Source: Lytechinus pictus (lineage: Eukaryota). Taken from it: 64,000 bases of DNA. The DNA lies in contig NC_087251.1 in the NCBI RefSeq assembly GCF_037042905.1, forward strand, positions 1 through 64,000, given 5' to 3'. Made by a program: the position numbers and the translations under genes. Below the pieces are notes generated by a model. The model worked only from the letters and a program-made list of their open reading frames with translations, searched no databases and was not told where the DNA came from. Below are positions 1 through 55,491 of the stretch, piece by piece. How positions within the stretch are numbered: the first letter of the stretch is position 1; each line of letters begins with the position of its first letter.

Positions 1-3000
1 ACCCCTCACCCTACCCCCACCCCCTAACCCTAACCCCTAACCCTAACCCTAACCCTAACCTAACCCTAACCCTATAACCTAACCCTAACCCTAACCCTAA
101 CCCTAACCCTAACCCTACCCTACTAACCTAACCCTAACCCTAACCCACTAACCCTAACCCTAACCCTAACCCTAACCCTAACCCTAACCCTAACCCTAAC
201 CCTAACCCTAACCCTAACCCAACCCTAACCCTAACCCTAACCCTAACCCTAACCCTAACCCTAACCCTAACCCTAACCCCTAACCCTAACCCTAACCCTA
301 ACCCTAACCCTAACCCTAACCCTAACCCTAACCCTAACCCTAACCCTAACCCTAACCCTAACCCTAACCCTAACCCTAACCCTAACCCTAACCCTAACCC
401 TAACCCTAACCCTAACCCTAACCCTAACCCTAACCCTAACCCTAACCCTAACCCCTAACCCTAACCCTAACCCTAACCCTAACCCTAACCCTAACCCTAA
501 CCCTAACCCTAACCCTAACCCTAACCCTAACCCTAACCCTAACCCTAACCCTAACCCTAACCCTAACCCTAACCCTAACCCTAACCCTAACCCTAACCCT
601 AACCCTAACCCTAACCCTAACCCTAACCCTAACCCTAACCCTAACCCTAACCCTAACCCTAACCCTAACCCTAACCCTAACCCTAACCCTAACCCTAACC
701 CTAACCCTAACCCTAACCCTAACCCTAACCCTAACCCTAACCCTAACCCTAACCCTAACCCTAACCCTAACCCTAACCCTAACCCTAACCCTAACCCTAA
801 CCCTAACCCTAACCCTAACCCTAACCCTAACCCTAACCCTAACCCTAACCCTAACCCTAACCCTAACCCTAACCCTAACCCTAACCCTAACCCTAACCCT
901 AACCCTAACCTAACCCTAACCCTAACCCTAACCCTAACCCTAACCCTAACCCTAACCCTAACCCTAACCCTAACCCTAACCCTAACCCTAACCCTAACCC
1001 TAACCCTAACCCTAACCCTAACCCTAACCCTAACCCTAACCCTAACCCTAACCCTAACCCTAACCCTAACCCTAACCCTAACCCTAACCCTAACCCTAAC
1101 CCTAACCCTAACCCTAACCCTAACCCTAACCCTAACCCTAACCCTAACCCTAACCCTAACCCTAACCCTAACCCTAACCCTAACCCTAACCCTAACCCTA
1201 ACCCTAACCCTAACCCTAACCCTAACCCTAACCCTAACCCTAACCCTAACCCTAACCCTAACCCTAACCCTAACCCTAACCCTAACCCTAACCCTAACCC
1301 TAACCCTAACCCTAACCCTAACCCTAACCCTAACCCTAACCCTAACCCTAACCCTAACCCTAACCCTAACCCTAACCCTAACCCTAACCCTAACCCTAAC
1401 CCTAACCCTAACCCTAACCCTAACCCTAACCCTAACCCTAACCCTAACCCTAACCCTAACCCTAACCCTAACCCTAACCCTAACCCTAACCCTAACCCTA
1501 ACCCTAACCCTAACCCTAACCCTAACCCTAACCCTAACCCTAACCCTAACCCTAACCCTAACCCTAACCCTAACCCTAACCCTAACCCTAACCCTAACCC
1601 TAACCCTAACCCTAACCCTAACCCTAACCCTAACCCTAACCCTAACCCTAACCCTAACCCTAACCTAACCCTAACCCTAACCCTAACCCTAACCCTAACC
1701 CTAACCCTAACCCTAACCCTAACCCTAACCCTAACCCTAACCCTAACCCTAACCCTAACCCTAACCCTAACCCTAACCCTAACCCTAACCCTAACCCTAA
1801 CCCTAACCCTAACCCTAACCCTAACCCTAACCCTAACCCTAACCCTAACCCTAACCCTAACCCTAACCCTAACCCTAACCCTAACCCTAACCCTAACCCT
1901 AACCCTAACCCTAACCCTAACCCTAACCCTAACCCTAACCCTAACCCTAACCCTAACCCTAACCCTAACCCTAACCCTAACCCTAACCCTAACCCTAACC
2001 CTAACCCTAACCCTAACCCTAACCCTAACCCTAACCCTAACCCTAACCCTAACCCTAACCCTAACCCTAACCCTAACCCTAACCCTAACCCTAACCCTAA
2101 CCCTAACCCTAACCCTAACCCTAACCCTAACCCTAACCCTAACCCTAACCCTAACCCTAACCCTAACCCTAACCCTAACCCTAACCCTAACCCTAACCCT
2201 AACCCTAACCCTAACCCTAACCCTAACCCTAACCCTAACCCTAACCCTAACCCTAACCCTAACCCTAACCCTAACCCTAACCCTAACCCTAACCCTAACC
2301 CTAACCCTAACCCTAACCCTAACCCTAACCCTAACCCTAACCCTAACCCTAACCCTAACCCTAACCCTAACCCTAACCCTAACCCTAACCCTAACCCTAA
2401 CCCTAACCCTAACCCTAACCCTAACCCTAACCCTAACCCTAACCCTAACCCTAACCCTAACCCTAACCCTAACCCTAACCCTAACCCTAACCCTAACCCT
2501 AACCCTAACCCTAACCCTAACCCTAACCCTAACCCTAACCCTAACCCTAACCCTAACCCTAACCCTAACCCTAACCCTAACCCTAACCCTAACCCTAACC
2601 CTAACCCTAACCCTAACCCTAACCCTAACCCTAACCCTAACCCTAACCCTAACCCTAACCCTAACCCTAACCCTAACCCTAACCCTAACCCTAACCCTAA
2701 CCCTAACCCTAACCCTAACCCTAACCCTAACCCTAACCCTAACCCTAACCCTAACCCTAACCCTAACCCTAACCCTAACCCTAACCCTAACCCTAACCCT
2801 AACCCTAACCCTAACCCTAACCCTAACCCTAACCCTAACCCTAACCCTAACCCTAACCCTAACCCTAACCCTAACCCTAACCCTAACCCTAACCCTAACC
2901 CTAACCCTAACCCTAACCCTAACCCTAACCCTAACCCTAACCCTAACCCTAACCCTAACCCTAACCCTAACCCTAACCCTAACCCTAACCCTAACCCTAA

Positions 3001-6000
3001 CCCTAACCCTAACCCTAACCCTAACCCTAACCCTAACCCTAACCCTAACCCTAACCCTAACCCTAACCCTAACCCTAACCCTAACCCTAACCCTAACCCT
3101 AACCCTAACCCTAACCCTAACCCTAACCCTAACCCTAACCCTAACCCTAACCCTAACCCTAACCCTAACCCTAACCCTAACCCTAACCCTAACCCTAACC
3201 CTAACCCTAACCCTAACCCTAACCCTAACCCTAACCCTAACCCTAACCCTAACCCTAACCCTAACCCTAACCCTAACCCTAACCCTAACCCTAACCCTAA
3301 CCCTAACCCTAACCCTAACCCTAACCCTAACCCTAACCCTAACCCTAACCCTAACCCTAACCCTAACCCTAACCCTAACCCTAACCCTAACCCTAACCCT
3401 AACCCTAACCCTAACCCTAACCCTAACCCTAACCCTAACCCTAACCCTAACCCTAACCCTAACCCTAACCCTAACCCTAACCCTAACCCTAACCCTAACC
3501 CTAACCCTAACCCTAACCCTAACCCTAACCCTAACCCTAACCCTAACCCTAACCCTAACCCTAACCCTAACCCTAACCCTAACCCTAACCCTAACCCTAA
3601 CCCTAACCCTAACCCTAACCCTAACCCTAACCCTAACCCTAACCCTAACCCTAACCCTAACCCTAACCCTAACCCTAACCCTAACCCTAACCCTAACCCT
3701 AACCCTAACCCTAACCCTAACCCTAACCCTAACCCTAACCCTAACCCTAACCCTAACCCTAACCCTAACCCTAACCCTAACCCTAACCCTAACCCTAACC
3801 CTAACCCTAACCCTAACCCTAACCCTAACCCTAACCCTAACCCTAACCCTAACCCTAACCCTAACCCTAACCCTAACCCTAACCCTAACCCTAACCCTAA
3901 CCCTAACCCTAACCCTAACCCTAACCCTAACCCTAACCCTAACCCTAACCCTAACCCTAACCCTAACCCTAACCCTAACCCTAACCCTAACCCTAACCCT
4001 AACCCTAACCCTAACCCTAACCCTAACCCTAACCCTAACCCTAACCCTAACCCTAACCCTAACCCTAACCCTAACCCTAACCCTAACCCTAACCCTAACC
4101 CTAACCCTAACCCTAACCCTAACCCTAACCCTAACCCTAACCCTAACCCTAACCCTAACCCTAACCCTAACCCTAACCCTAACCCTAACCCTAACCCTAA
4201 CCCTAACCCTAACCCTAACCCTAACCCTAACCCTAACCCTAACCCTAACCCTAACCCTAACCCTAACCCTAACCCTAACCCTAACCCTAACCCTAACCCT
4301 AACCCTAACCCTAACCCTAACCCTAACCCTAACCCTAACCCTAACCCTAACCCTAACCCTAACCCTAACCCTAACCCTAACCCTAACCCTAACCCTAACC
4401 CTAACCCTAACCCTAACCCTAACCCTAACCCTAACCCTAACCCTAACCCTAACCCTAACCCTAACCCTAACCCTAACCCTAACCCTAACCCTAACCCTAA
4501 CCCTAACCCTAACCCTAACCCTAACCCTAACCCTAACCCTAACCCTAACCCTAACCCTAACCCTAACCCTAACCCTAACCCTAACCCTAACCCTAACCCT
4601 AACCCTAACCCTAACCCTAACCCTAACCCTAACCCTAACCCTAACCCTAACCCTAACCCTAACCCTAACCCTAACCCTAACCCTAACCCTAACCCTAACC
4701 CTAACCCTAACCCTAACCCTAACCCTAACCCTAACCCTAACCCTAACCCTAACCCTAACCCTAACCCTAACCCTAACCCTAACCCTAACCCTAACCCTAA
4801 CCCTAACCCTAACCCTAACCCTAACCCTAACCCTAACCCTAACCCTAACCCTAACCCTAACCCTAACCCTAACCCTAACCCTAACCCTAACCCTAACCCT
4901 AACCCTAACCCTAACCCTAACCCTAACCCTAACCCTAACCCTAACCCTAACCCTAACCCTAACCCTAACCCTAACCCTAACCCTAACCCTAACCCTAACC
5001 CTAACCCTAACCCTAACCCTAACCCTAACCCTAACCCTAACCCTAACCCTAACCCTAACCCTAACCCTAACCCTAACCCTAACCCTAACCCTAACCCTAA
5101 CCCTAACCCTAACCCTAACCCTAACCCTAACCCTAACCCTAACCCTAACCCTAACCCTAACCCTAACCCTAACCCTAACCCTAACCCTAACCCTAACCCT
5201 AACCCTAACCCTAACCCTAACCCTAACCCTAACCCTAACCCTAACCCTAACCCTAACCCTAACCCTAACCCTAACCCTAACCCTAACCCTAACCCTAACC
5301 CTAACCCTAACCCTAACCCTAACCCTAACCCTAACCCTAACCCTAACCCTAACCCTAACCCTAACCCTAACCCTAACCCTAACCCTAACCCTAACCCTAA
5401 CCCTAACCCTAACCCTAACCCTAACCCTAACCCTAACCCTAACCCTAACCCTAACCCTAACCCTAACCCTAACCCTAACCCTAACCCTAACCCTAACCCT
5501 AACCCTAACCCTAACCCTAACCCTAACCCTAACCCTAACCCTAACCCTAACCCTAACCCTAACCCTAACCCTAACCCTAACCCTAACCCTAACCCTAACC
5601 CTAACCCTAACCCTAACCCTAACCCTAACCCTAACCCTAACCCTAACCCTAACCCTAACCCTAACCCTAACCCTAACCCTAACCCTAACCCTAACCCTAA
5701 CCCTAACCCTAACCCTAACCCTAACCCTAACCCTAACCCTAACCCTAACCCTAACCCTAACCCTAACCCTAACCCTAACCCTAACCCTAACCCTAACCCT
5801 AACCCTAACCCTAACCCTAACCCTAACCCTAACCCTAACCCTAACCCTAACCCTAACCCTAACCCTAACCCTAACCCTAACCCTAACCCTAACCCTAACC
5901 CTAACCCTAACCCTAACCCTAACCCTAACCCTAACCCTAACCCTAACCTAACCCTAACCCTAACCCTAACCCTAACCCTAACCCTAACCCTAACCCTAAC

Positions 6001-9000
6001 CCTAACCCTAACCCTAACCCTAACCCTAACCCTAACCCTAACCCTAACCCTAACCCTAACCCTAACCCTAACCCTAACCCTAACCCTAACCCTAACCCTA
6101 ACCCTAACCCTAACCCTAACCCTAACCCTAACCCTAACCCTAACCCTAACCCTAACCCTAACCCTAACCCTAACCCTAACCCTAACCCTAACCCTAACCC
6201 TAACCCTAACCCTAACCCTAACCCTAACCCTAACCCTAACCCTAACCCTAACCCTAACCCTAACCCTAACCCTAACCCTAACCCTAACCCTAACCCTAAC
6301 CCTAACCCTAACCCTAACCCTAACCCTAACCCTAACCCTAACCCTAACCCTAACCCTAACCCTAACCCTAACCCTAACCCTAACCCTAACCCTAACCCTA
6401 ACCCTAACCCTAACCCTAACCCTAACCCTAACCCTAACCCTAACCCTAACCCTAACCCTAACCCTAACCCTAACCCTAACCCTAACCCTAACCCTAACCC
6501 TAACCCTAACCCTAACCCTAACCCTAACCCTAACCCTAACCCTAACCCTAACCCTAACCCTAACCCTAACCCTAACCCTAACCCTAACCCTAACCCTAAC
6601 CCTAACCCTAACCCTAACCCTAACCCTAACCCTAACCCTAACCCTAACCCTAACCCTAACCCTAACCCTAACCCTAACCCTAACCCTAACCCTAACCCTA
6701 ACCCTAACCCTAACCCTAACCCTAACCCTAACCCTAACCCTAACCCTAACCCTAACCCTAACCCTAACCCTAACCCTAACCCTAACCCTAACCCTAACCC
6801 TAACCCTAACCCTAACCCTAACCCTAACCCTAACCCTAACCCTAACCCTAACCCTAACCCTAACCCTAACCCTAACCCTAACCCTAACCCTAACCCTAAC
6901 CCTAACCCTAACCCTAACCCTAACCCTAACCCTAACCCTAACCCTAACCCTAACCCTAACCCTAACCCTAACCCTAACCCTAACCCTAACCCTAACCCTA
7001 ACCCTAACCCTAACCCTAACCCTAACCCTAACCCTAACCCTAACCCTAACCCTAACCCTAACCCTAACCCTAACCCTAACCCTAACCCTAACCCTAACCC
7101 TAACCCTAACCCTAACCCTAACCCTAACCCTAACCCTAACCCTAACCCTAACCCTAACCCTAACCCTAACCCTAACCCTAACCCTAACCCTAACCCTAAC
7201 CCTAACCCTAACCCTAACCCTAACCCTAACCCTAACCCTAACCCTAACCCTAACCCTAACCCTAACCCTAACCCTAACCCTAACCCTAACCCTAACCCTA
7301 ACCCTAACCCTAACCCTAACCCTAACCCTAACCCTAACCCTAACCCTAACCCTAACCCTAACCCTAACCCTAACCCTAACCCTAACCCTAACCCTAACCC
7401 TAACCCTAACCCTAACCCTAACCCTAACCCTAACCCTAACCCTAACCCTAACCCTAACCCTAACCCTAACCCTAACCCTAACCCTAACCCTAACCCTAAC
7501 CCTAACCCTAACCCTAACCCTAACCCTAACCCTAACCCTAACCCTAACCCTAACCCTAACCCTAACCCTAACCCTAACCCTAACCCTAACCCTAACCCTA
7601 ACCCTAACCCTAACCCTAACCCTAACCCTAACCCTAACCCTAACCCTAACCCTAACCCTAACCCTAACCCTAACCCTAACCCTAACCCTAACCCTAACCC
7701 TAACCCTAACCCTAACCCTAACCCTAACCCTAACCCTAACCCTAACCCTAACCCTAACCCTAACCCTAACCCTAACCCTAACCCTAACCCTAACCCTAAC
7801 CCTAACCCTAACCCTAACCCTAACCCTAACCCTAACCCTAACCCTAACCCTAACCCTAACCCTAACCCTAACCCTAACCCTAACCCTAACCCTAACCCTA
7901 ACCCTAACCCTAACCCTAACCCTAACCCTAACCCTAACCCTAACCCTAACCCTAACCCTAACCCTAACCCTAACCCTAACCCTAACCCTAACCCTAACCC
8001 TAACCCTAACCCTAACCCTAACCCTAACCCTAACCCTAACCCTAACCCTAACCCTAACCCTAACCCTAACCCTAACCCTAACCCTAACCCTAACCCTAAC
8101 CCTAACCCTAACCCTAACCCTAACCCTAACCCTAACCCTAACCCTAACCCTAACCCTAACCCTAACCCTAACCCTAACCCTAACCCTAACCCTAACCCTA
8201 ACCCTAACCCTAACCCTAACCCTAACCCTAACCCTAACCCTAACCCTAACCCTAACCCTAACCCTAACCCTAACCCTAACCCTAACCCTAACCCTAACCC
8301 TAACCCTAACCCTAACCCTAACCCTAACCCTAACCCTAACCCTAACCCTAACCCTAACCCTAACCCTAACCCTAACCCTAACCCTAACCCTAACCCTAAC
8401 CCTAACCCTAACCCTAACCCTAACCCTAACCCTAACCCTAACCCTAACCCTAACCCTAACCCTAACCCTAACCCTAACCCTAACCCTAACCCTAACCCTA
8501 ACCCTAACCCTAACCCTAACCCTAACCCTAACCCTAACCCTAACCCTAACCCTAACCCTAACCCTAACCCTAACCCTAACCCTAACCCTAACCCTAACCC
8601 TAACCCTAACCCTAACCCTAACCCTAACCCTAACCCTAACCCTAACCCTAACCCTAACCCTAACCCTAACCCTAACCCTAACCCTAACCCTAACCCTAAC
8701 CCTAACCCTAACCCTAACCCTAACCCTAACCCTAACCCTAACCCTAACCCTAACCCTAACCCTAACCCTAACCCTAACCCTAACCCTAACCCTAACCCTA
8801 ACCCTAACCCTAACCCTAACCCTAACCCTAACCCTAACCCTAACCCTAACCCTAACCCTAACCCTAACCCTAACCCTAACCCTAACCCCAACCCCAACCC
8901 CAACCCCAACCCCAACCCCAACCCCAACCCCAACCCCAACCCCAACCCCAACCCCAACCCCAACCCCAACCCCAACCCCAACCCCAACCCCAACCCCAAC

Positions 9001-9696
9001 CCTAACCCCAACCCTAACCCTAACCCTAACCCTAACCCTAACCCTAACCCTAACCCTAACCCTAACCCTAACCCTAACCCTAACCCTAACCCTAACCCTA
9101 ACCCTAACCCTAACCCTAACCCTAACCCTAACCCTAACCTAACCCTAACCCTAACCCTAACCCTAACCCTAACCCTAACCCTAACCCTAACCCTAAACCC
9201 TAAACCCTAAACCCTAAACCCTAAACCCTAAACCCTAACCCTAACCCTAACCCTAACCCTAACCCTAACCCTAACCCCTAACCCTAACCCCCAAACCCTA
9301 ACCCTAAACTAACCCTAACCCTAACCCTAACCCTAACCCTAACCCTAACCCCTAAACCCTAACCCCTAAACCCTAACCCTAACCTAACCCTAACCCAACC
9401 CTTACCCTAACCCTAAACCCTAACCCTAACCCCTAACCCCTAACCCCTAACCCCTAACCCTAACCCTAACCCTAACCCCTAAACCCTAACCCCTAAACCC
9501 TAGCCCTAACCCTAACCCTAACCCTAACCCCTAACCCTAACCCCTAACCCTAACCCTGACCCTAACCCTGACCAAAACCCTGACCCTAACCCTGACCCTG
9601 ACCCTGACCCTGACCCTGACCCTGACCCTAACCCTAACCCTAACCCTAAACCCTAAACCCTAACCCTAACCCTTACCTTTACCCTAACCCTTACCT
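1..9696 (-). repeat. Terminal telomeric array (CCCTAA)n on + / (TTAGGG)n on -
   Basis: Nearly pure CCCTAA from the window start to ~8885, then variant and degenerate units up to the junction at ~9696. C-rich strand on + fits a left chromosome end. Confidence 0.99.
8886..9696 (-). repeat. Proximal telomere variant repeat zone
   Basis: (CCCCAA)19 at 8886-8999, (CCCTAAA)6 at 9191-9232, CCCTGA units at 9554-9625, interspersed with CCCTAA, CCCCTAA and CCTTA. Confidence 0.95.
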
Positions 9697-12372
9697 TGAT
9701 TTATTGGGGCTGCCCCAATAAAAATGTCAGCCGCTTTTCTGTACACATCTAAGAGTCAGAAGTGGTACTATAACTCCGAAAATGAATGGAATTTATCTCA
9801 ATATTAACATATTAATCTCATTCATATTGAAAGGGTGGCGGGATCCCTACTAGCAAAATATTATCTCTATACTAAAGCCTAATCCTAGCAAACAAATTGG
9901 TTTATTTTCTTAAATGACAATGGATAATTTTGTAAAGGAAAGAGTGACCGAAAAAGATAGAGATAGAGAATGAAAAGTTAACGGTAAAGGATACACGGGA
10001 GTCGGTATAAGTTTAAAAAGAATATCTATATAGTTCTGAATCCTAACCAACAAATAGGTTAGACAATTTTGGTTGAGAAGAGAGTGACAGAAAAAAGAGA
10101 GGAAGAGGAGAGTGAGTGAAAGAGGGAGACAGGAAGAAAGAAATAACAAACGAAAGGTAAAGGATACACTAGATTGGGTACAATTCTTAAAAAGAATATT
10201 CGTATAGATCTGGATGAATAACAATGCAATTTTTATCCAACTTCAGGCTTCCCCGATTAAAGCGTGATTTATTGGGGCTACCCCAATAAAAATGTCAGCC
10301 GCTTCTCTGTGCACATCCAAGAGTCAAAAGTGGTAGTATTACACTCAAAATGAAAGGAATTTCTCATAATATTAGTATAAAAATCTCATTCATATTGAAA
10401 GGGTGGCGGGATCCTTCACTAGCAAAAAAATATCTCTTTACCAAAGCCTTACCCTAGAAAACAAATTGGTTTATTTCCTCAAATTACATTGGATAATTTG
10501 GTTTAGGAGAGAATGACCGAAAAGAGAGAGAGACAGAAGAGAGAATGAAAATGTTAAAGGTAAAGGATACACGGGAGTCGGTATAATTTTTAAAAAGAAT
10601 ATCCATATAGTTGTGGATGGATAACAGTGAAATTTTTATCCGACTTCAGGGCTACCCCGATTAAACCTTGATTTATTTGGGCTACCCCAATAAAAATGAC
10701 AGCCGCTTTTCTGTACACATTCAAGAGTCAGAAGTGGTAGTATTATTCAGAAAAAGAAACAAATTTACCCTAAATATCAGTATGCAAATTTCATTATCAT
10801 TGAAAGGGTGGCGGGATCTGTCACTGGGAAAAGTTTATCTATACTAAAACGTAATCGAAACCAACAAATAGGTTAGATAATCTTAGCTAAGGAGAGTGGC
10901 AGAAAAAAAGAGAAGAAGAGGAGAGTGAGAAAGAGAGAACCAACAAGTTAAAGGTAAAGGATAAACGAGAGTAGGTATAATACTTGAAAAGAATATCCAT
11001 GTTGTTCTGGATAAAAAACTGTGAAATTTGTATCCAACTTCAGGGCTTCCCCGATTAAACTGTGATTTATTGGGGCTACCCCAATAAAAAAATGTCAGCC
11101 GCCTCTCTCTACACATCCGAGAGCAAATGGTGGTTGTATTACACATTCAAGAGAGAATTGTGGTAGGGGTAAAGTAGAATCTTCCACTTTCCTGGTGGTA
11201 GTATAACTCCGAAAATGAGAGGAATTTCTCTTAATATTAGTATAAAAATCACATTCATATTGAAAGGGTGACGGGATCCCTCACTAGCAAAAAAATATCT
11301 CTGAGTCATACTAAAGCCCAATCCTAACAAACAAATAAGTTTATTTCTTCACAAAACATTGGATAATTTGGTTAAGGAGAGAGTGACTGAAAAATACAGA
11401 GAAAGAGAGAGAGAATGAAATGTTAAAGGTAAAGGATACACGGGAGTCGGTATAGTTTTTTAAAAGAATATCCATATAGTTGTGGATGGATAACAGTGAA
11501 ATTTTTATCCGAATTCAGGGCTTCCCCGATTAAACTTTGATTTATTGGGGCTGCCCCGATAAAAATGTCAGCCGCTTTTTTGTACACATCCAAAAGTCAG
11601 AAGTGGTAGTATAACTCCGAAAATGAATGGAATTTATCTTAATATTAGCATATTAATCTTATTTATATTGAAAGGGTGGCGGGATCCCTACTAGCCAAAA
11701 ATTATCTCTATTCTAAAGCCTTATCCTAGCAAACAAATTGGTTTATTTTCTTAAATGACATTGGATAATTTTGTTAAGGAAAGAGTGACCGAAAAAGATA
11801 GAGAGAGAGAATGAAAAGTTAAGGGTAGAGGATACACGGGAGTCGGTATAATTTTTAAAAAGAATATCTATATAGTTCTGAATCCTAACCAACAAATAGG
11901 TTAGATAATTTTGGTTGAGGAGAGAGTGACAGAAAAAAGAGAGGAAGAGGAGAGTGAGTGAGAGAGGGAGACAGGAAGATAGAAATAACAAACGAAAGGT
12001 AAAGATACACTAGATTGGGTACAATTCTTAAAAAGAATATCCGTACATTTCTGGATGAATGACAGTGAAATTTGTATCCAACTTCAGGGCTTCCCCGATT
12101 AAACCGTGATTTATTGGGGCTACCCAAATAAAAATGTCAACCGCCTCTCTCTACACATCCGAGAGCAAATGGTGGTTGTATTACACATTCAAGAGAGAAT
12201 TGTGGTAGAAGTAGAATCTTTCACTTTCCTGGTGGTAGTATAACTCCGAAAATGAAAGGAATTTATCTTAATATTAGCATATTAATGTCATTCATATTGA
12301 AAGGGTGGCGGGTTCTTTCACTAGCAAAAAATATCTATATACTAAAGCCTAACCCTAGCAAACAAATAAGTT
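9697..12372 (+). repeat. Subtelomeric complex tandem repeat, 6 units of ~400-570 bp
   Basis: GATTTATTGGGGCT(G/A)CCCCAATAAAAATGTCAGCCGC recurs at ~9698, 10267, 10670, 11064, 11539 and 12108. GGGTGGCGGGATCC..ACTAGC recurs once per unit. Units at 9698 and 11539 are closest to each other (higher-order structure). Confidence 0.93.
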
Positions 12373-12559
12373 TTGTTTGTTTTTTATTATCGAAAACAGG
12401 GACCGTTTGCACTCTTCTTAAAATAGGTCAAAAAGCCTTCACACCCGATTTTTCCCTTTTTTATCTAATTGCGTAACATTTTGTATCAAGTGGTACATTT
12501 CAGTTATTTATATTTCTTCTTATTCATACAACTTTGTGTGTGGTACATTAAACAATATG

Positions 12560-13920
12560 TTATGTAAACTAATTAGATGATTGCCTTTTCATCAGAAAAG
12601 ATATATCTCTCTATTTTGTTTTATTCATTAATAAGTTCAAACAATATGTCGTGTTCTTTTCTCCTTAATCCATTTTCCAAGGGCTTCTATTTTCCACCTT
12701 TCGTCTGTCTTGGATATTTTTTCTCTTTTTTTTTTCTTTTGTTTACAGGAGCCCTACAAGATTTGCAAATACGGACTTTTATTGTCGAGTTCCAAGGTGA
12801 GTTGACTGACTTTAAAAGCTTATCCTTCGAGTTTAATTGTTAACAAAATATTTTAATGAATTCTTTTGAAAGACATACTTGGCAATATAAAGGATGCTCT
12901 TACATCATCCATGTCGTAGTCCATTTTTCAAAGAAGACAAAATAACATTTTATTCATATAATGTAAACAGATGAAAAAATTAATAAATTTTGATTCAATA
13001 GATCGTGCAACAACAGTTTATATCGACGACTCCTTCATCTTATTTCAATAATATCTTTACTGTTGTAATTGTTTTATTCCATTCAGATAAACTTGATATG
13101 AAAGAAATAACGTTGGTCTTAATGAAACGAGGTCAAATAAACAGATTACATAAGGTTTCTTATCCTTCTCGTACTCATTTAAAAAGGAAGCTGTCTGGTT
13201 ATGATGTCACGTGTTATTGCTTAACAGATCGCACTGCGGACTGCCATTTGTGATGACACAGGACGAAATATTTATGTTAATTGAAAGAAATAGAAGAAAA
13301 TGGACCAATGTAAACGAAGCTCGTAAGCACGTACAGTATGTGAAATACTTTTCAAAGCGAGCAACTTGGGAAATGCTAAAAAAAAATTTACTTTTGTAAA
13401 AAGGGACTTTTTTTTTAATATGAACATTGAGAAGGGGATTTTCCATGGCTGTAAATCTTCCTTGTTGTATGCTTCTATTGAAATCTACCACACGGGCCCG
13501 AAGATCCGCAAGTACTAGTCGTTTTTGTGTTCCATTTCTATATTCGGCAAATAGACGGAACATCAAGTTCACCCTTTCACTTACATTATTAACTATGCTT
13601 TTCCAAGCAAACAATTACTTGCACCATCCAAGCGGGAGTCGTCCATATTTCACAAAAATAAGCATTTTCCCGTTATGTGTGGACAAATACAACGCTCCTT
13701 CCCAAAAAAGGAAATGAGGAAAGAAAGAATTGAAATGTCTCACCATGTATAACGCATACAAAAAGTAAATCATCTGATGGTCTTGGACCTTACAGGATTC
13801 TCGGATACAGCAAACTCCGATTTCTCAAATGAACAAATAATAAATCACAGCCATAATGACAAACACCATCTTAAGGCAGTCCAATGTTGTCTCCATGCCT
13901 CGAACGCAATGGAAGAAATG
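12560..13920 (-). pseudogene. Decayed intronless ORF with two RING-finger-like motifs
   Basis: One minus frame has only ~3 stops over ~290 codons (13920-13050) in AT-rich DNA. Manual translation gives KPYVICL...LSYQVYL and FFICL...EHPLYCQVCL...RICKSCRAP, with frameshifts and stops. Confidence 0.4.
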
Positions 13921-14920
13921 AGCTATTCATAAGTTGAGCTAACACTGGAGTGAGCAAGAAAGTGTACTTATACGGTAACGAAAAAGAAAGTATTATGACC
14001 TGATTATAGTATGATCATTGACAGGAGCTCCTAATGGCTCCACGATTTGATCCATGTGACAAGGAGCATCAACTGCTTGGTAACAAAATAATTACAACAG
14101 TTTTAGGTTTTAAATGTTTATTTGACCATTCATAGCTATTTTGTAATTTCATAGCAGGGAGAAGCACTTTTGGCCACCCCTCCCCTAAGATCTCGGTCGG
14201 AGATCGCGCAATCGCGCCGAAAATTCGCACGCACGTTATATTCGTGTCTTAATCTCTCAATAATGCCAAAATATTTGAAATTAATTTTTGATTGACTATG
14301 CTAATTAATTCATATGATCATAATTTGGCTGCAAATCAATAATATTGCTCTTTAAACTTTAAATATTGGTCTGGACACTCATTTTAGGATTTTTACTATA
14401 TGTATACTAAAAACAGGAAATAGCTAGTGTTCTATATACTTAAATGTTATTTTCTTTATTTTTTATATACTTTTTTATTTATTAGGTTTGTATTTTATTT
14501 GAAGGAAATCTTCTGGAACACTATTTACAAGTGAAAGAAAAAGACTTAAAAAAATAAAATTTTTATGAAAATATGTATTACTGTACAAGGCCTATAGTAG
14601 CGCCAATGCCTCTATACCCAAACAATAACCATAACCCTGACTGTATGGACTTTCCACATTAGTATAACACGCATGTGTACAAAGTCTATGGGAGTTTCGG
14701 ACATATGATATATTTTTCCTTTTTTATAAACAAACCCTATAGAATTTTTTTTCCCCAACTATAGTTTTTTACATGTTTTAGAACATTTTATAGCTATAAA
14801 AAAAAAAATTAAAAAAAAATACTTTGAAATTTTTTCGAATTTCCCCATAGGTATAACACGTGTGTACAAAGTCTATGGAGAATGGATGGCGGGATCCGCC
14901 ACTAGCGCAAAGTGCCTCTA

Positions 14921-14983
14921 TACCTAACCCTAACCCTAACCCTAACCCTAACCCTAACCCTAACCCTATCCCTAACCCTAACC

Positions 14984-15024
<41 letters not shown>

Positions 15025-15034
15025 CCCTAACCCT
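14921..15034 (-). repeat. Interstitial telomeric tract, ~19 CCCTAA units, same polarity as the terminal array
   Basis: Direct reading; one CCCTAT and one CCCTAAA variant. Confidence 0.97.
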
Positions 15035-15145
15035 TACAAAAACGTAAAAATTACCATATTTTTTGCATGGTGAGCACTTTCCCCTTTTGGCTAATGAAGC
15101 CCCAACCCTTCCCCCACTTTGAAAACTGTTCAGCGGCTGCTGAAC

Positions 15146-17709
15146 TTGTTCCATGACAATTGCTCCGGCGACAATTGCTCCGGACAGTTGCTCCGCCGAC
15201 AGTTGCTCCGTCGACACTTGCTCCGCCGATATTTGCTCCGTCGACACTTGCTCCGCCAATATTTGCTCCGTCGACATCTGCTCCGCCGATATTTGCTCCG
15301 CCGATAATTGCTCCGCCGATATCTGCTCCGATTATACGACAATTGCTCCGCGACAATTGCTTCACCTTCAATTGCTCCGCCGTCATGTGCTTAGATAACA
15401 AAATTGCACGAACATCTTACAAATTGTTTTGTTCTTATTATTTATTAATTTATTTCATCCCCCCCCCCCCCCATCATCACAGCTTTCTGCTTAAAAAAAC
15501 AAATTGTTCTCCCTGCCGCTGACACTTGGCAAATTGTGAATCTGGATTTTTGTTCATATATTATTATCATTGGTTTCACTCCGGTTTTGAGCTGGGAGAG
15601 AATGTGGGTGGGGGGGTGCAGGAAACAATAACTCTTCTGCTTTCCAGCAACTTATACACCATACATTCGCGCGGGCTTCCCTCTCCTCTCTCTCCCCCTT
15701 TCTCGTTTTGTTCTTTCACGCCATTTATTTTCATTATCAGCATTTTAATTTTTATCGATATTTTTTACTACGTCTTGGGCCTTATCTACCCTTAAACCTT
15801 TTTTCTTTTAATTTGTTTCAATGATCATCACTGGCGTACAGATGGGCGAGGGGCGTGCTAGGGGTCACGGATCCCCCCCATTCTCCCAACCAATGGGAAA
15901 AAAAAGAATAAAGGAAAGGAAAATAAATGTCATCCTTGTCTGGCCCCCTCCATTTTTTTGTTGGCTCATTACGCTACTGGTGAGTCACTATAAAATTAGA
16001 GTTCGGTTGTATTTTGTTCTATTCTGTGCAATAGCAACAATATAAATATATTTTTGATAAATGAATATAATGTATGTATCTCTCTCATAACGTCTAAACA
16101 AATAATGTTGTTTTTAAAAGACAATAACATATATACCAGTAATATATAAAAACAACATTATTTGTTTAGACGTTATGAGAGAGATACATACATATATTCA
16201 TTTATTAAAATATATTAATATTGTGGCAAATATTATTATATGGCTTTTCTGGTAAATATATCCAAAATATTCAATTAGCGCATCACGCTCTCATTTCTTT
16301 TACGAGATATCCCCCAAGGTATGCTTCATTTTTACAATTAAAAAAAAATGCGTATAAATAGAAAGGGGACATTTATACGCATTTTTTTTATATTGTAAAC
16401 ATGAAGCATATCTCGGGGGGAGATCTCGTAAAAGAAATGAGAGTGCGATGCGCTAATTGAATATTTTAATTATCCTTTTTCTATCAGTGAAGAATACAAT
16501 CATGATCAACATAAAACACAAAAGCAACTCACTATTATATACAGTGCATCCCACAAAAAACGAAACCGAGATTTATCGATGATTTATCATAACTTAATCA
16601 CAATTACAATAGACAAATGACCTACCATTGTAAAGCTTAGAATCTCCTCTTTCATCTGAAACTACTGAGATTATTTCTCATTCACGCATGAGTGAGTAAA
16701 ATCAATTTGAAGAGGGGATACCAAAATGTCACTTGGCGGGCTGTATCTGGGTTTCAAAAAGAAAACCACAATTTTAAAAATTTCAATATCTGCTCTTTAA
16801 TTTGATACCTCAATTACAGAGAATAGTCAAGAAATAACAAAGTTCTGGCTATTTGAAATAAGGCTTGAATTTCAATAAATTCATATAATGAAGAGGTTTT
16901 ACAAGCTAGCGTTCAAACTCACTCGACACTCCGTTTTGTTGACGGTCAGCCATGCATTAAGCCTTTTGTTAACCGTGCGATAGTTTCTGTGGGAAACCGG
17001 TGAAAACACGTTTTTAGGCAATATTTGAAATCAGTGCCTAAAAATACCCCTATATGCCAAATTTCAGTGTCACATGCCATGTAAAACTAAAAAAAATGAC
17101 ATTTAATGATTTTTCATGGCGGCCATCTTGGATTTCAAAATGGCGGCCGATGGTCAAATCGCTTGGGGCCGGCAATTTTTTAAATCAGCGCCCTAAAATA
17201 CCCCTGTATACCAAATTTCACACTTTCTGCCAGATCCGAGCATCTTGGCCATTTTTTGTCACATAACCGCTCCACTAATATACAAATTTGTAAATTGACG
17301 TCTTCAGCCTGTGCTCTAATTGTTATGCGCATGAAAGTACGAATAAATAAATAAATAGTCGTCGCATTATCGGAGCAATGTACGGCGGAGCAGATGTCGG
17401 CGGAGCAAATATTGATTTTGGCGGAGCAGATATCGGCGGAGCAATTTTCCGTGGAGCAGATGTCGGCGGAGCAGATGTCGGTGGGGCAAATATCGGCGGA
17501 GCAATTGTCGTATAATCGGAGCAGATGTCGGCGGAGCAATTTTCGGCGGAGCAAGTGTCGACGGAGCAAATATCGGCGGAGCAAGTGTCGACGGAGCACC
17601 TGTAGGCGGAGCAACTGTCCGGAGCAATTGTCGGCGGAGCACTTGTCGTATTTTGCGTAGCAATTGTCGGCGGAGCAGATGTCGGCGGAGCAATTGTCGG
17701 GTCACCACC
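15146..17709 (+). mobile_element. Non-autonomous Mutator/Phantom-like foldback DNA transposon, ~2.56 kb
   Basis: Both ends are inverted arrays of ~15-nt GACA(A/C/G)TTGCTCCGCC units (15148-15380 and 17370-17706). 9-bp direct repeat GCTGAACTT at 15139-15147 and 17710-17718 (alternative register CTGCTGAAC/CCGCTGAAC). 9-bp TSDs are typical of MULEs. Confidence 0.8.
16542..17014 (+). mobile_element. Partial Tc1/mariner-type MITE end inside the MULE
   Basis: TA|CAGTGCATCCCACAAAAAAACGAAAC terminus resembles the TA|CAGTGCGTCCCAAAAAAA end at 55682. No partner TIR seen. Confidence 0.5.
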
Positions 17710-17818
17710 GCTGAACTTACGAACTTTTCGTTTCCCTGGATGTTAAATCTCTTGATATCCCCACTATACCAAAAGCACATGGAGACAATGGAATATTGCT
17801 TGTCCTTATCGTGCTATA

Positions 17819-18944: not shown

Positions 18945-19396
18945 AGGCCAAGTCAACTCCAACAAAAAGTTGCTTTGAATACAAAGAGAAATATCACACA
19001 TGCATAACACAGAAAATTTCATCAAAATCGGGTGTAAAATAAGAAAGATATGATATTTTAAAGTTTCACTTAATATCACAAAACATCCTGGTCGGTATGC
19101 AAATGAGGGGACTGATGACATCAACCGCTCACTATTTCTTTGTAATTTATTCTATGAATTATGAAATATTTCCATTTTCTCCTCATTGTCATAAGAAACA
19201 AAGTTTTATTCCGTCCTGATCATGTGGAATTACCATTGTTTTAACAATTGTGGTTCGACCAAGAGGGTACTAGTGTCAAATTTGTGAAAATTGAAATATT
19301 GTATAATTGAAACAATAAAAACAAAAAATATGGTGAGTGAGTGACATCATTAACTCGCTCATTTGCATATCATTGAGTTGTGCATATAACTGTTTT
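18945..19396 (+). mobile_element. Truncated Kolobok-like non-autonomous element
   Basis: TTAA|AGGCCAAGTCAACTCC start, AAATTTCATCAAAATCGG motif and internal ATGCAAAT/TGACATCA inverted motifs. Only one terminus visible; it abuts the LINE RT. Confidence 0.5.
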
Positions 19397-22060
19397 ACAA
19401 GATGTGTGTTGTTTAAAAATACAGGTCCGGGTAAATTAGCGATCGTATTGCTGAATAAGATATAATTTGATTTATTGATATTTAGAGACAATTTATTGGA
19501 AAGTATCCAGTTAAGAAGAAAAATCAGTTCATGATTTAGTGTTTGTAAGAGAGTTTGAGGATTTTTGTGAGAGATAAATATATTGGAGTCGTCTGCAAAC
19601 AGAAGGAATGAAAGAATATTAGAACACACTTTTGAAAGTCATTAATGTAAATGAGAAATAATAAAGGGCCTAGTAAAGACCCCTGTGGCACTCCGCATGT
19701 AATAAGTTTTTTATGAGATTATTTATTGTTAATACATACAAACTGCTGACGGTTAGATAGATAACTTCTGAACCACTTTCCACGTATTCCATAATGTGAT
19801 AATTTGAAAATAAGAATGTCATGATTAATTGTATCAAAGGCCTTGGAGAAGTCCAGAAATAAACCAACAGTATGAGAAAAGGCGTCTATTGATGTAGCTA
19901 TTTTATCTATAAACATTAATAATGCATGGGTAGTTGAATGTTTCTTTCTAAAACCAAATTGAACCTTCGATAAAATATTATATTTATTTAGAAAATTAAC
20001 AGTGCGGGAGTATATTATTTTTTCGAGAATTTTGGAAAAAGAGCATAAGAGCGAAATGGGACGATAATTTCCAATATCATGTTTATTACCTTTCTTATGT
20101 ATCGGTATGACCTTTGATATTTTCATTTTTTCTGGTACTACCCCAGTTATTAAAGATAAGTTGAGTGAATAAGTTAGCGGTTGTACTATTTCATTTATAG
20201 TCTTCTTCAAAAGAAAATTCGTAATATTATCATACCCAGAGCTTTTTTTAGTTTTCAAATCTTTAACAATGATCATAATTTCACGAGAAGTAATGGGAGT
20301 AAAAAATATAGATTGACCGTTCGGTTCTTTTAAAAACGATCGAAAATCAACATCGGAATTTGGAATGTCGCGGGCAAGATTTGGGCCAATATTTATGAAA
20401 TAATAATTAAATGTTTCAGCAATCAACATTGGATTTCTATTTTCGGAGCTGTTGATCATAATTGTAGAAATAGATGGTGATTTTGTTTTTTTATTTAGAA
20501 AATTGTTTATCACCTTCCACGTACTTGAGACATCATATTTGTTTTCTTCAAATGGTCTAGAAAAATAATTCTTTTTAGCGGTCCGAAGTAAAGTAGTAAG
20601 GGTATTACGATATGAAGAGTATCGACGTTTACTTTGATCTGATTTAATTTTTTTGTGCTTATAAAAGAGACGATTTTTCCGGTTAATACAACGAAGAAGA
20701 GCCGTAGTGATCCAGGGAGATCTCGGAGTTTTTTTGTAGTTCCGAGATGAAGACTTCAAAGGAATGTTGGTATTATACAAATTAAGAAACCTGTTAACAA
20801 AAATATTATATGCTTCATTAGGGTCGGAATTTGTGTACACCTGAGACCAGTCGGCTTGTGCTAATCATTCTCTAAATTTGTATAAATTGTGTTCAGAAAA
20901 GTTACGGGTCATAGACCTGGAGCAGTCTATGATATGTTCGGGGGTTGGGGAAAAAGTTAATACGGGGAAGTGATCAGACATATCACTGATAATAATTCCG
21001 GAACTTAAGCATTGATCAACATTTGTAAAAATGTTATCTATAAGGGTTGAAGATACATCAGATATTCGAGTGGGTTTGTTAATTAAAGGTAAAAACGATT
21101 TCGAAAGCATTATATCATAAAATTGTTGACATACATTACACGAGTTACATTTCAAGAGATCTAAATTAAAATTTCCCATAATAAAGCATACTTTATTTTC
21201 TAGAGTTGGTGCAGATAAAAGGCCCTCAAGTAATTCAAAAAAATCAAGAGGATTTGCTTGAGGTGGTTTATAAATTTCCCCGATGACAATATTTTTCCCT
21301 CTTGGGACAATAATTTCAACAAAAACAGTTTCAGCAAGGTTTGACATTTGATTTAATTCCTCTAAAGACTTCGTTTGAAACTGGTTTAAGACGTACAATC
21401 CCACCTCCACCGGTTTTGTTTTTTCGATTATTCCCAAAATATATATACCTATCTAAAAGATGTAATGGATAATTTCCATCAGTCAGCCAGGTTTCGCATA
21501 ACCCAATAACAGAGATATCAAAAGATAATTTGTCAAGAAATTATTTGAAATTGTCCACATTTTTTTAGAGGCTTCTAATATTAAAATGGAAGAAAGACAT
21601 ATCTTTTTTAAGGGCGGAAGATTCTTTAACAAATTCATTTTCAGTCAGGTATTTAGATTCAGATATTGGTGACAAAAGGTCGTTAGGATCGATTGTTACG
21701 GAAAGAGATTGCATTTCACGATTTAGCTGTTCAGAAATACTTTCTTCAAAATTATCTGCACCATCTCAGTGACTAGGAAGAAACTGTGGTTGTGAATTGT
21801 TAAACAAGGAAGTAAATTCATTCTCATCTAAAGAATGCATTGGGAAAACATCCATACTCATCGGCATAGCACAAAGATTCGGAAGAATGCAAAGGTAAAT
21901 GCGTACATAGCAGAGACTGTAAATGTTATCTTTAGTAGAACATTGCAATTGATCAAAATAACAGACGTATATCGATATATGAATCCATTGTAACAAAAGG
22001 AACATCTGGAAAATTTAGGCCTATTACATAATGTTACGGAATGTCTACACGGCTCCTGCA
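19397..22060 (-). mobile_element. Degraded CR1/L2-group LINE ORF2 (APE endonuclease + reverse transcriptase)
   Basis: APE motifs (IYKPP, MGNFNLDL, PTRI..STLIDNIF, SDHFPV) in ORF 20865-21437. RT motifs (YRPISLL, QFGFR, FLDFSKAFDTINH) in 19719-20840 and LFADD near 19590. Frameshifted; 3' end cut at ~19397. Confidence 0.93.
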
Positions 22061-23663
22061 TAATGTACCAAAGTTTAAAGCATTCTGAATGATATGCTCC
22101 TGTATACAAAGACAAGTAAGAGTTGAAGGCAATAGTTACCACCAAAAAGTAAAATACAAACATGTAAAGCAATGTCCCTGAAAGACACAATAAAAAGCTG
22201 ATGAATAAAACATCACTGTTTGCCAGTATCATTGCCATTGTGTTCTTTATGCCACCGTTAAAATGATTCGATAGAAAAGGTCTAAGCTTTTTTATTTTTT
22301 AAATAAGGTGTACAGAAAAAAGGTCACAAAACTCGCAATATACAAACTGGGCATATTTATATGCAAGCGATAATAATTACAGCTTGTTTAATGTACGTAG
22401 GCAGAAAAAAAAGAGCATTACGAAAATAACTCAGATAACATAGGACGATGATAGATACATAAAATATGCTAAAGGATAAAACTTTTAAGCTATCCCTTTT
22501 TTCAATCCAACACATCTTCAAAACATTATCTTTCTTCAATTTTAAGCATCTTTTAATGAAAAAAAAATAAGCAAAACATATTCGTAGGCTGATTTGACAA
22601 ATGTTGAATGCAAAAAATGCAATATTTTTTTTTTTATTCTCGATCTCCTTTTCTTTTATCATTCTTCATACAGAAGAAACATAATTTTACTCTTATTCTA
22701 TCACGCAAATCTTGCATAATTCATTTATATTTTAAGGATAAAATAAAAGGATTTTTATTTCGTTTCATTCAAGATGCGAGCATCAGTCAGCCAGCGACCA
22801 AATTAAAAAATCTATTTCCCAGATATTATGTACATATTAATATAAATGTGTCCATTTTCAGATTATTTTATTTTTTATTTTTCGTACAAAAAAAAATGAT
22901 ATACGTTTCTGTGTCCGATTATCAAAAAAGCTACATGCAAAGGGAAAATGCAATATAATGAAGAAACAAAAAACACATTAAAACGTGTTATGCTTCTGAA
23001 AACTGAGTGTGTATATATTCTTCAGTGAAATAAACCTAAAACAGTTTACTTTTTAACAAAGTTTCAAATTACATGAATTAGTTACTTTATTAACCTGTTT
23101 TTAGCAAGCAAATGTTATTAAGTGATATGAAATTCCAATTACGCAAGAAATATATCACTTGTTTTGCCTATATTATCAAGATCATTCTGTTCATCAAAAG
23201 AACCTTTTATTTTCTCCTCTTATTCATGAGTTATTTTTTTTTAAAGTTCATTTTCCATTCGGTTTTCCATGCTATAAACCACTGAATATTTTCATCTGCT
23301 CTATTTTGTATGAAAAAAGTAGAGATTTAAAAATCATATACAAGCATGCCTTTTCAGGTATCTATGATAAGTAGAGCATAATAAGGAGAAAGCTATAGTG
23401 CATTTGCAATATAATAAAACCAAGGCCATAGTTGTATCATCTAGCTTCCTGTATTTGAAAATGATAATTCAGATCTAGTCTTTATCTGCTCATTTTTATA
23501 TGACAAGATAGATTCATTGATATTTTTTTATCAAAAAGGAAAAAAATTGTTTTGTGCACGTGATTCACTTGCCAAAAAGTTCATCTCTAATTAGGCTTCC
23601 AAGCAGGTAAGCATCTTCATCTGCTTTTGTTGTTGTTGTTCTCTTTTAAACATCACACATTAC

Positions 23664-24041
23664 CTCTGCCGTTGCACATCTCGGGCAACCGTTGCCAAGG
23701 ACCCAATGTTGGCCCTTACATCATCCGTTGCATCGAGTAAATGGTTTCCGATCAGCTGCGTGGTAGGGCCAGAGTTTATATCTTGGGCGGCCCTTTTCAG
23801 CCCCTGCCTTACCTGCAGCACTGCGGGGTGAGACTGATCCGTCGGGTGATTATGGGCAACACGCCCCTGGGGGTTGCCATAAGCTGGTGGTCCATCTGTG
23901 GTTATTGCCCCACTACAATGGGAACTCCGCTGAAATTCGCACTGCCAGCGAATTTGTCCTGTTTGTAGGCTTCTTTTTTTACGTAAAGAAACCCTTCATG
24001 TCCGAGTTTGACCCCCCTCTGATGTTTTCGATTATTTTCAT
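23664..24041 (-). pseudogene. First exon of a FLYWCH-domain MULE (Phantom-like) transposase, absent from the ORF track
   Basis: Manual translation with +1 nt in a G6 run (~24012-24017) and an A7 run (~23974-23980): MKIIENIRGGxKLGHEGFLYVKKRSLQTGQIRWQCEFQRSSHCSGAITTDGPPAYGNPQGRVAHNHPTDQSHPAVLQVRQGLKRAAQDINSGPTTQLIGNHLLDATDDVRANIGSLATVARDVQRQR, then AG|GTAATG donor. W-x-C-x6-C...HNH matches the FLYWCH finger. Downstream DDE exons not found. Confidence 0.8.
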
Positions 24042-37500: not shown

Positions 37501-38716
37501 TATTAAATTTTTTTTTTTTTTTGATATGCCTTTCTTTCTTCTTTCCTAATTCCACCCTGTGCACCCCATTAAAACTCAATGAAGAATGTTTCAAATGTTA
37601 TCTAGTTCTTACACTGTTCATAAGGAGATGGGATTATGTGTATAGTTCACGCTGAAGGGAGAGGAATTGGTACGTATGGGAAAAAAAACTTATCCCAAAA
37701 GATAGAGAATTGATCTCCATGACATTAAATCACAATTGTGTCCTATTTTTTAAAACAAGTTTGTATGATACATGTATGTCTCCCACGTAAGGCGTAAGGA
37801 AAAAAGTTTACCTAATGCATCAAATTAGATTAATTGTTTAGATTCATTGCGGTAAAAGAAAAATAATAAATTCGATGTTCCAGCCAGGGTGACCAGATTT
37901 CACAAAATTAAATACGGGACAATCGACAAAGTACTATGTACCATCGGATCGACCGAGCCAGGCCAAAAAATCAACAAAAAGGCTACACAATGTTAGACTT
38001 GTTAATGTAATATATTAAGAAAGGGGAAGGGAGGGTGAGCAGAAGAAAGAAAAGAGAAAAAAATGAGGAAACAAGAAATGATTTGAGAGGAAAGAAAAAA
38101 TAAGGAAAAATTAAAAGGAAAAAAGTTTGAATAAAAGGATGAAAGAAAGAATAAAAGACAGATAACGGTTTCCGTCATTACTTGAAATGAATAAAGAAAG
38201 AAAGAATTAAAATAAAGGAAGGAAAGATGAATAAATGTTTGAAAGAAAAAACATAAGGAGAGAAAAGAGAAAGAAAGAAAAAGAATTCCTTCATTATTTA
38301 AAAGAAACAAAGACAGAAGAAAACAGGAAGGAATCAAAGAAAGAAGAAAGGGAAAGAAGGAATAAGGGAAAAGAATTAAAAAGGGAAAACGTAACTTAAA
38401 AAATGAAAGAAAAGAAAACAAATAGCATCTAAAAAAAAAAATAATAATCTACAATAGATTCCAATCACGCTACTTTAAAAACATAATGGTCTATCACAAG
38501 ATAACCAAAGTACATGCACATGTAAACATAATGCATGGTACGTATCCTAGGGTTCCCTAGGATAAGTGCGGGCACGGCCAATATTATAGAGCACGCAGGA
38601 GACTGCGGGCGCGGCTAAACGCCCTAGTCTGCTCCCCTTGAATACCCTCGGTTAGACGCGAAAGCCCCCTAGGGTGTTTGCGTGCTCGGGCGTGACGTTT
38701 CCGGAGGCGGGCACTG
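34522..38716. mobile_element. 4.2-kb TA-flanked DNA transposon nested in the 21-kb element
   Basis: Imperfect TIRs CAGTGCCGGCCGCGGGAAACGTCAC and GTGACGTTTCCGGAGGCGGGCACTG, TA on both sides, GC-rich subterminal regions with repeated CCCTAGG. No transposase recognised. Confidence 0.7.
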
Positions 38717-39299
38717 TACGTACATAATGTACAAGGTAATTTCCTCTTTATCTTCCCACTTTTCTTCCTTTTCTTTTACTTTTCTGTCATCCACCTCTCT
38801 CTTATGTTTCATATTTTTTTCCAAATATATACCCTTTTTTCTTTTATTTTTTGTCTTCTTGTTCTCTTCCGTGTTCCCATTTTTATTTTCCCTTTTTTTT
38901 TTTTTTTTTTTTTGGGGGGGGGGGGTGGTGACGCCTATCAGTCCCTAGATCTGTTATCCATCTTTATCCTGTTCGTTCCCCTTTTCCTTACCCCTCCTCT
39001 CCCCCCCCCCCTATTTCTATCTCTATCTCTCTCTCTCTCTCTCTTCCTCATGAGGGGCAGGCGAAGGGGATACCCCTCCAGTTTCACTGGATCCGTTTCT
39101 TTATCTTCAAATTCTCTCTCCCATTTACCTTTTTCTTTATGTCTTATATCTTCCTTTTATGTTTGTCTTTTTTCCGGGGGGGGGTAATGGCTCCTCTGGA
39201 CCCCGGATCCGTTTGTCTTCTTTCTCTTTTTATTATTATTATTTTTTTTTTTTTTTTTGGGGGGGGATCCCCGGATACGTTTCCCTTTCTTTAACTCTT

Positions 39300-48824: not shown

Positions 48825-49157
<333 letters not shown>

Positions 49158-49829: not shown

Positions 49830-50213
49830 CATGTATACATATACATGTATAAATATACACACAAACACAGTCATGCTAAAAAAGGTAAGTAAACCCCTCC
49901 GGAAAATGCACTCCTTCATGCTGAGTGTTGGATGTAGACATCAACACTACAATGTTCGGCTAGCCCAGAGAAACAAATTTATCACCTGATTTCACAATTA
50001 AATATGGGAGAACAATTTAAATATGTTCAATTTCTGGTCGGATTCACTGTAGTTTGAGCACCACTGTATGTTATATATTAAGATATATGTTTGTGTACAT
50101 ATATACTCTACATATACATACAGAGTTCGCCATCTTTAATTGTTAATTGTTACAGAGGTTTGATTTATTTTCATGTATATAGCAGCATATTTACATAATA
50201 TATTTCATATTAA

Positions 50214-55040: not shown

Positions 55041-55491
55041 TACCGTGTTTACACTTAATCGGCATTTGAATCGGCTCGCGGTTCTGAACCGCGAGCCGAT
55101 GCAGCATCGGCTTTTTCATAGCGTGTAAACGCGAGTAACTTGAATCGGCTCGCGGTTCAGAACCGGCAATTTGCACCACCAAAGTAGTAGGTTCTGAACC
55201 GCGAGCCGATGCAGAATCGGCTTTTTTACAACGTGTAAACAGAAAGCCGATTCTGCACCGGCAATTTGTGCGCATTTCAATTACTTTACCATTGTGACGT
55301 AATTGTTAGCGCACTGATCAAGCGTTGTCTTTATTATGACGTATATTGTAGGTATGCGTATCATTTCAAGTTTTTGCATCGGCTCGCGGTTCTGAACCGC
55401 AAGCTGTAACAACGTGTAAACGCAATCCAAATGCCGATTCTGCATCGGCATTTGGTTCAGAACCAAATGCCGATTAAGTGTAAACACGGTA
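55041..55491. mobile_element. PIF/Harbinger-like MITE inserted in the tRNA acceptor stem
   Basis: TIR TACCGTGTTTACACTTAATCGGCATTTG; 3-bp TSD TCT (55038-55040, 55492-55494); internal palindromic repeats. Confidence 0.88.

Follow-up and report, generated by a model that had tools for sequence, protein, structure and literature searches.

Helitron-like transposons have been described beside tandem repeats and at chromosome ends. In the Paramecium aurelia group, Helitrons use C-rich telomere repeats as insertion sites, and the internal tracts left behind have the polarity considered here (PMC13085455). The cnidarian Hydractinia carries subtelomeric arrays of a Helitron-like 372-base unit (PMC11934779). 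In mites, the 3' subterminal repeat of non-autonomous Helentrons (HINE/DINE-1, HLE2) is located 38-60 bases inside the end (PMC4067079); oyster HINEs have stem-loops of 5-7 bp with loops of at most 4 bases, and tandem repeats that abut a 60-base right module (PMC7492417). Helentrons are also on record in a sea urchin. Elements of the HLE2 class have an inverted pair of subterminal repeats of 11-17 bases, insert between T and T without a duplication and have an autonomous Rep/Helicase partner. Retroelements offer a second precedent: a hammerhead defines the telomere-attaching 3' end of endonuclease-less Penelope-like elements (PMC6431247). We compared these systems with a 45-base module, a small hairpin and the short stretch that follows it, which abuts telomere repeats at a chromosome end of Lytechinus pictus. 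All sequence evidence comes from one window, the first 64,000 nucleotides of NC_087251.1 (positions 1-64,000).

The window represents the left end of the chromosome and opens with 9.7 kb of (CCCTAA)n (3-9696, plus strand, about 1611 copies), in which variant repeats are confined to the proximal 900 bases. An internal telomere tract lies at 14923-15034 (plus strand, 112 bases, 18.5 copies, 96% matches). Its polarity is that of the terminal array, as an earlier reading of this DNA (the original prediction) implied. Seven copies of the module and one partial copy were found in the window, each followed by telomere-like words. The full copies start at 9833, 10401, 10806, 11266, 11674, 12303 and 14884. 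The original prediction had located the first six correctly, and the module/telomere string that it quoted is present exactly at 14885-14930. In the distal array, the module and its telomere-like words span 9829-9889 (unit 1), 10397-10458 (unit 2), 10802-10861 (unit 3), 11262-11328 (unit 4), 11670-11730 (unit 5) and 12299-12359 (unit 6), all on the plus strand. The intact module occupies 14879-14922. A partial copy had also been announced; it is present at 14598-14646 (plus strand), but it consists of the final 20 bases without the hairpin, followed by four to five eroded telomere words.

The likeness among these copies exceeds chance without help from the telomere words. With those words removed, the 40-base core scored 32-42 against the six array copies, and the best background score was 28 (406 windows, both strands). 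A profile of the six array copies, again without telomere words, found 14880-14922 with an E-value of 2.7e-4. Its next match over 9690-64000 had an E-value of only 1.3, and no other copy was found between 15.1 and 64 kb. The partial copy matched the full copy with an E-value of 0.36 in a single-sequence search and 0.01 in BLAST when the telomere words were included. The 18 bases after the module agree with the telomere repeat at 13, 13, 11, 13, 12 and 14 positions in units 1 to 6, respectively, and at 14 in the partial copy, values reached by no more than 0.6% of background windows. Eroded telomere words had been predicted, and telomere-like words do follow the module in all units (three in unit 1), although the three that were quoted belong to units 1, 2 and 6 and unit 3 is poorer.

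Other parts of the predicted module are less uniform. The shared word CTCTATAC is exact in three of the eight copies; unit 3 has CTGG in place of CTAG, and unit 4 carries a 5-base insertion. The predicted hairpin is a perfect 6-bp stem with a 3-base loop in the intact copy (14887-14901, followed by 21 bases up to the telomere tract) but is imperfect in all six array copies. Folded as DNA, the intact hairpin gave -6.7 kcal/mol and the array copies -0.1 to -2.3 kcal/mol. The array copies retain part of the hairpin, mainly through G-T pairs on the plus strand.

The six distal copies belong to one subtelomeric tandem repeat that almost certainly derives from a single decayed ancestor, and this holds under every reading of the module considered below. 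The units lie head to tail on the plus strand at 9697-10264 (unit 1, 568 bases, abutting the telomere), 10265-10668 (unit 2, 404 bases), 10669-11062 (unit 3, 394 bases), 11063-11537 (unit 4, 475 bases), 11538-12106 (unit 5, 569 bases) and 12107-12373 (unit 6, incomplete). They are 76-94% alike over their first part. Unit 3 is the most diverged (76-80% to the others), and the pairs 1/5 (94%) and 4/6 (93%) reveal a higher-order duplication; units 4 and 6 also have about 65 extra bases in common. In 14 of the 66 aligned columns, five or all six of the array copies agree on a state that is missing from the intact copy. These shared derived states include a change in the right arm of the hairpin and changes in the first telomere word. 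The sequence that follows the telomere words is the same in all six units, and unit 6 keeps about 14 bases of it before departing from the unit sequence. Because the substitutions are shared and the flanks agree on both sides, the six units form one satellite whose ancestor was already eroded. The array stands for a single event and its later tandem growth. This leaves three independent junctions rather than eight: those of the array ancestor, of the partial copy and of the intact copy.

This history bears directly on the original prediction, which read the block at 9.7-14.9 kb as a chain of 5'-truncated, telomere-capped Penelope-like elements. Separate priming on the overhang would be expected to leave fresh repeats of varied length and differing truncation points, judging from what is described for such elements (PMC6431247), so units that share their erosions, their post-word sequence and their higher-order duplications are not separate additions. 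Athena/Terminon and Coprina elements (PMC6431247, PMC8557442) resemble the locus in having a structured module followed by C-rich telomere repeats in the same polarity; unlike them, the locus shows no hammerhead, no reverse transcriptase (RT) in the block and no variable truncation among the six units. A search of 9690-15200 with Rfam gave four matches with E-values of 1.4-6.4, none of them a ribozyme, and the hammerhead core motif, with at most one mismatch, was not found near any of the seven full modules. The C-rich repeats do stand at the 3' end and point away from the tip, but this arrangement is not specific to Penelope-like elements. Insertion into the C-rich strand yields the same polarity (PMC13085455), and healing and recombination should do so as well. 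The chain is unsupported, although an RNA-primed origin may apply to the three independent junctions. One part of the prediction stands: the block joins the 112-base tract exactly at the module, consistent with its having been appended to an older telomere, by recombination at the module or otherwise. The statement that no RT gene is present was also borne out for the block, with none in the six frames of 12360-14922. The nearest RT frame is at 19719-20861 (minus strand, RVT_1, E-value 2.9e-17) and is not linked to the module. Its motifs resemble those of a long interspersed nuclear element (LINE).

The three independent contexts have features of an element end. A whole-unit profile matched the intact copy only over 14879-14940 (E-value 2.8e-8), and the telomere-side junction is alike in all three contexts. 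Just past the hairpin, identity drops from 120/174 to 38/180 alignment cells, and the minus strand there reads TT or TTT. The homology extends over only about 60 bases, starting next to the hairpin and reaching into the telomere words, which is what a shared element end would look like. A short stretch that is common to unrelated neighbours and bounded by a hairpin suggests such an end. Our preferred reading, held tentatively and at somewhat less than even chances, is that the module is a terminus of a non-autonomous rolling-circle (Helitron-like) element and that the block joined the older telomere by insertion or recombination there.

Two known arrangements fit a rolling-circle end, one on each strand, and either strand may be the active one. 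Along the minus strand, G-rich repeats give way to a 15-base candidate subterminal repeat; 7 bases later comes the 6-bp stem with its 3-base loop, and 4 further bases lead to TT, with 42 bases from the candidate repeat to TT. HINE/DINE-1 elements (PMC4067079, PMC7492417, PMC11417382) have a similar order of repeat tract, subterminal repeat (here a candidate), stem-loop and TT, and likewise a link to tandem repeats. They differ in that our module has neither an inverted partner nor a left module that we could find, and in that the tract here is the telomere repeat. On the plus strand, a stem-loop pointing inward is followed by C-rich repeats, as at the right end of the Paramecium elements. In those Helitrons the repeats are likewise long in one copy and reduced to a few degenerate words in others, satellites lie between telomere and module, and a palindrome stands beside the terminal telomere (PMC13085455). 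Our locus differs from them in having no transposase, one chromosome end and an animal host, and its array words were copied with the unit, whereas the Paramecium words vary between copies (PMC13085455). The Paramecium insertions are characterized by telomere repeats on both sides of all copies, absolute orientation bias and variable tract length (PMC13085455). Here, all eight copies have the same orientation with telomere repeats on the proximal side, but only three of them are independent, and distal repeats occur in unit 1 alone. The Hydractinia repeat HSymSHlR (PMC11934779) resembles the array in its unit of roughly 400 bases, its local tandem growth by a chromosome end and its marine invertebrate host. 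It differs in extent (megabases against six units here), and the comparison is one of layout, not of sequence.

Several observations weigh against a rolling-circle end. The candidate subterminal repeat has no inverted partner in the array, in the block or over 9.7-20 kb, where 12-100% of shuffles matched the best scores; a truncated copy would also be without one. A TT close to a hairpin is common (12 of 25 rows). The alignment shows no covariation or two-sided hairpin change, in a count that includes the hairpin-less partial copy, and the existence of that copy without a hairpin is itself a difficulty. No element body can be defined, since neither flank is constant across the three independent contexts, and the junctions are only three. 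Transposase remnants were absent from the block in Pfam and two-frame protein searches. Canonical Helitron (HLE1) geometry, with a palindrome of 16-20 bases about 11 bases ahead of a terminal CTRR and an insertion site between A and T, does not apply, since the palindrome here has 15 bases and the first CTAA lies 22 bases on. Neither can CTAG serve as a Helitron terminus: it touches the hairpin, a C comes after it and the homology continues beyond.

No second element end was found. A candidate left end within the units, near 10575-10597 on the minus strand and recurring in each, was no better than shuffles. The subterminal repeat of oyster Cg_HINE_11_12 matched at 8 of 11 positions on the minus strand, in the left-end sense, but it was picked post hoc from 11 families and carries little weight. 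Exact-pattern scans returned five loci in metagenomes, one in prokaryote genomes and 0, 7 and 0 in viral contigs, collections that are not where animal repeats reside; none of the 13 loci extends into the rest of the module or into telomere repeats, and we regard them as chance. Four module words searched in the literature led only to two unrelated papers, and none occurs in the supplements of PMC4067079. We found no prior description of the module or of telomere-targeting Helitrons in echinoderms in literature coverage that lacked most subscription journals and any repeat database, and the element family may already be catalogued.

A less probable but serious explanation reads the module on the plus strand as a retroposon's 3' tail, with a stem-loop, 21 bases and a (CCCUAA)n tail priming on telomeric DNA. 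The three independent copies would then be short 5'-truncated insertions or terminal additions, one of which was later amplified. A tail would account for the telomere-side junction, which is fixed in all three contexts, and for the shorter partial copy, the opposite side being variable (about 45 against 20 bases); every copy lies within 5.3 kb of the telomere. In the array, most changes in the right arm result in G-T pairing on the plus strand. A model is the tail of eel UnaL2, a hairpin with a GGAUA loop that is usually followed by three terminal repeats (PMC1636434); the counterpart here is GGATC on a 5-bp stem, together with the three words of the array. Set against this GGAU-type loop and short tandem tail, the stem-loop here is short and stands 21 bases from its tail, and the window offers neither a partner LINE nor a convincing target-site duplication. 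The flank words in common are 5-6 bases long, and 13% of control pairs reach 6. The module profile missed the L2-like 3' end near 62050, and telomere repeats precede no module, unlike what short terminal scraps would show. Of the two possible sources, a stringent-type LINE or a short interspersed nuclear element is improbable but the likelier. An endonuclease-less Penelope-like element is very improbable, given the missing hammerhead, the block without RT and the description of Athena elements as rotifer-specific (PMC8557442).

An alternative that we consider as probable as the retroposon tail is that no dedicated system was involved. The module could be an internal piece of an ordinary inverted-repeat element that contains CCCTAA, or an old subtelomere-telomere junction, multiplied locally by ectopic recombination and break-induced replication. 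Internal telomere tracts of this polarity are commonplace in subtelomeres, and the array itself shows repeated unequal exchange. In two of the three contexts the module directly adjoins sequence related to an interspersed repeat flanked by TTAA. However, that repeat at 50210-50964, which has TTAA at both ends, contains no module, and the supposed arms around the partial copy are unlike each other (33% of shuffles score as high). The homology also breaks off only a few bases from a perfect hairpin and not at an arbitrary point. Explanations of other kinds have only a slight probability.

If the module is indeed the conserved end of a small non-autonomous Helitron-like element that abuts telomere repeats, its history may be sketched as follows. 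Either the element inserted itself into the repeats or its CCCTAA run mediated recombination or break-induced copying, and the 5.2 kb block would thereby have been placed distal to the older telomere. Under every reading, the hairpin and three telomere words had decayed in a single ancestor before the array grew, and unequal exchange or slippage then multiplied that ancestor into six units. Telomerase may afterwards have capped the array inside a unit. Nothing points to present activity.

As found, the locus is ordinary in outcome: what resembles a transposon end has become part of a small subtelomeric satellite, for which a cnidarian offers a precedent. Its lesson is that tandem units should not be tallied as separate insertions. 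Should the module prove to mark many chromosome ends in one orientation, it would represent a mobile element that targets telomeres in an animal whose telomerase repeats are ordinary, and would reveal a route for building internal telomere tracts and subtelomeres. By analogy, the module might even be an animal counterpart of the telomere-capping Helitrons of Paramecium, lengthening chromosome ends beside telomerase, but we think this quite improbable.

Several smaller features accompany the satellite and the telomere tracts. A palindrome with a 10-bp stem marks the unit starts (9700-9722, perfect also at 10268-10290 and 11066-11088), and the terminal telomere joins unit 1 three bases ahead of it. 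The bases before the palindrome match the telomere repeat at 6-7 of 18 positions, the chance level, in all five inner units. With two marked sites per unit of about 480 bases, the adjacency of terminal telomere and palindrome counts as a weak coincidence. Unit 1 contains a duplicated sub-block at about 10039-10215. In the duplicated sub-block (region of 10042-10061 and 11886-11905, and near 10858-10876 in unit 3), the last telomere-like word pairs with a reversed word, 8 bases farther along, into a 6-bp hairpin; part of what looks like eroded telomere may thus be a hairpin arm. A variant word, CCCTTAC, closes the proximal side of both telomere tracts (9680-9696 and 15028-15040) and is not present in the first 8800 bases of the terminal array. 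It is possibly a signature of new telomere addition.

The block as a whole is a mosaic of satellite, DNA with one exon-like piece and debris that resembles DNA transposons. The stretch at 12374-14173 has no other copy in the window and could be assigned to no family. It holds an exon-like piece of 48 bases (12749-12796) with a strong pyrimidine tract, an AG acceptor and a GTGAGT donor, and there are open stretches on the plus strand at 13327-13929; no homologue was found. A Pfam scan of 12 read-through frames over 12.4-14.1 kb gave one sub-threshold zinc-ribbon match. One minus frame had no match among 1.84 billion proteins, and none of 60 candidates from a search of one plus frame against longer proteins was homologous; the other four frames were covered by the Pfam scan only. 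Next to this stretch, 14174-14540 (plus strand) is a decayed relative (about 60%) of the interspersed repeat at 50210-50964, with a score of 133 against 36 +/- 6. A further motif, X, occurs twice on the plus strand, at 14648-14696 and 14837-14880. The two copies are 86% alike, and the likeness stops where the module begins; the first has an 18-base word in common, reversed, with 50721-50738.

The remainder of the window has 30-45% G+C and is rich in repeats. A foldback element at 15148-17709 has long inverted arms of 15-base repeats and lies between the two copies of a 9-base direct repeat (15139-15147 and 17710-17718). It contains nested palindromes (16070-16193 and 16264-16467), and a lone arm lies at 47790-48168. 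The element is reminiscent of the TU elements of sea urchins. Broken LINE-like frames occur at 19276-21452 (minus strand), 39392-39715 (minus strand) and 61247-62068 (plus strand), the last of which has a stem-like stretch and an (ATT)n tail at its end. A fragment at 23663-23995 (minus strand) has a weak FLYWCH zinc-finger match (E-value 4e-4, below the curated cut-off). The small frame at 48855-49154 encodes an InaF motif (PF15018, E-value 2.1e-16) and a membrane-like stretch; situated 39 kb away from the telomere, it is probably a gene of the host. A G+C-rich island at 38543-38740, set in A+T-rich DNA, begins with a 10-bp palindrome and does not match the module profile. A tandem array of 341-base units lies at 43441-44655 (3.5 copies, 93% matches), and a cluster of perfect hairpins at 55070-55474 has related loops and two stems of 14 bp.

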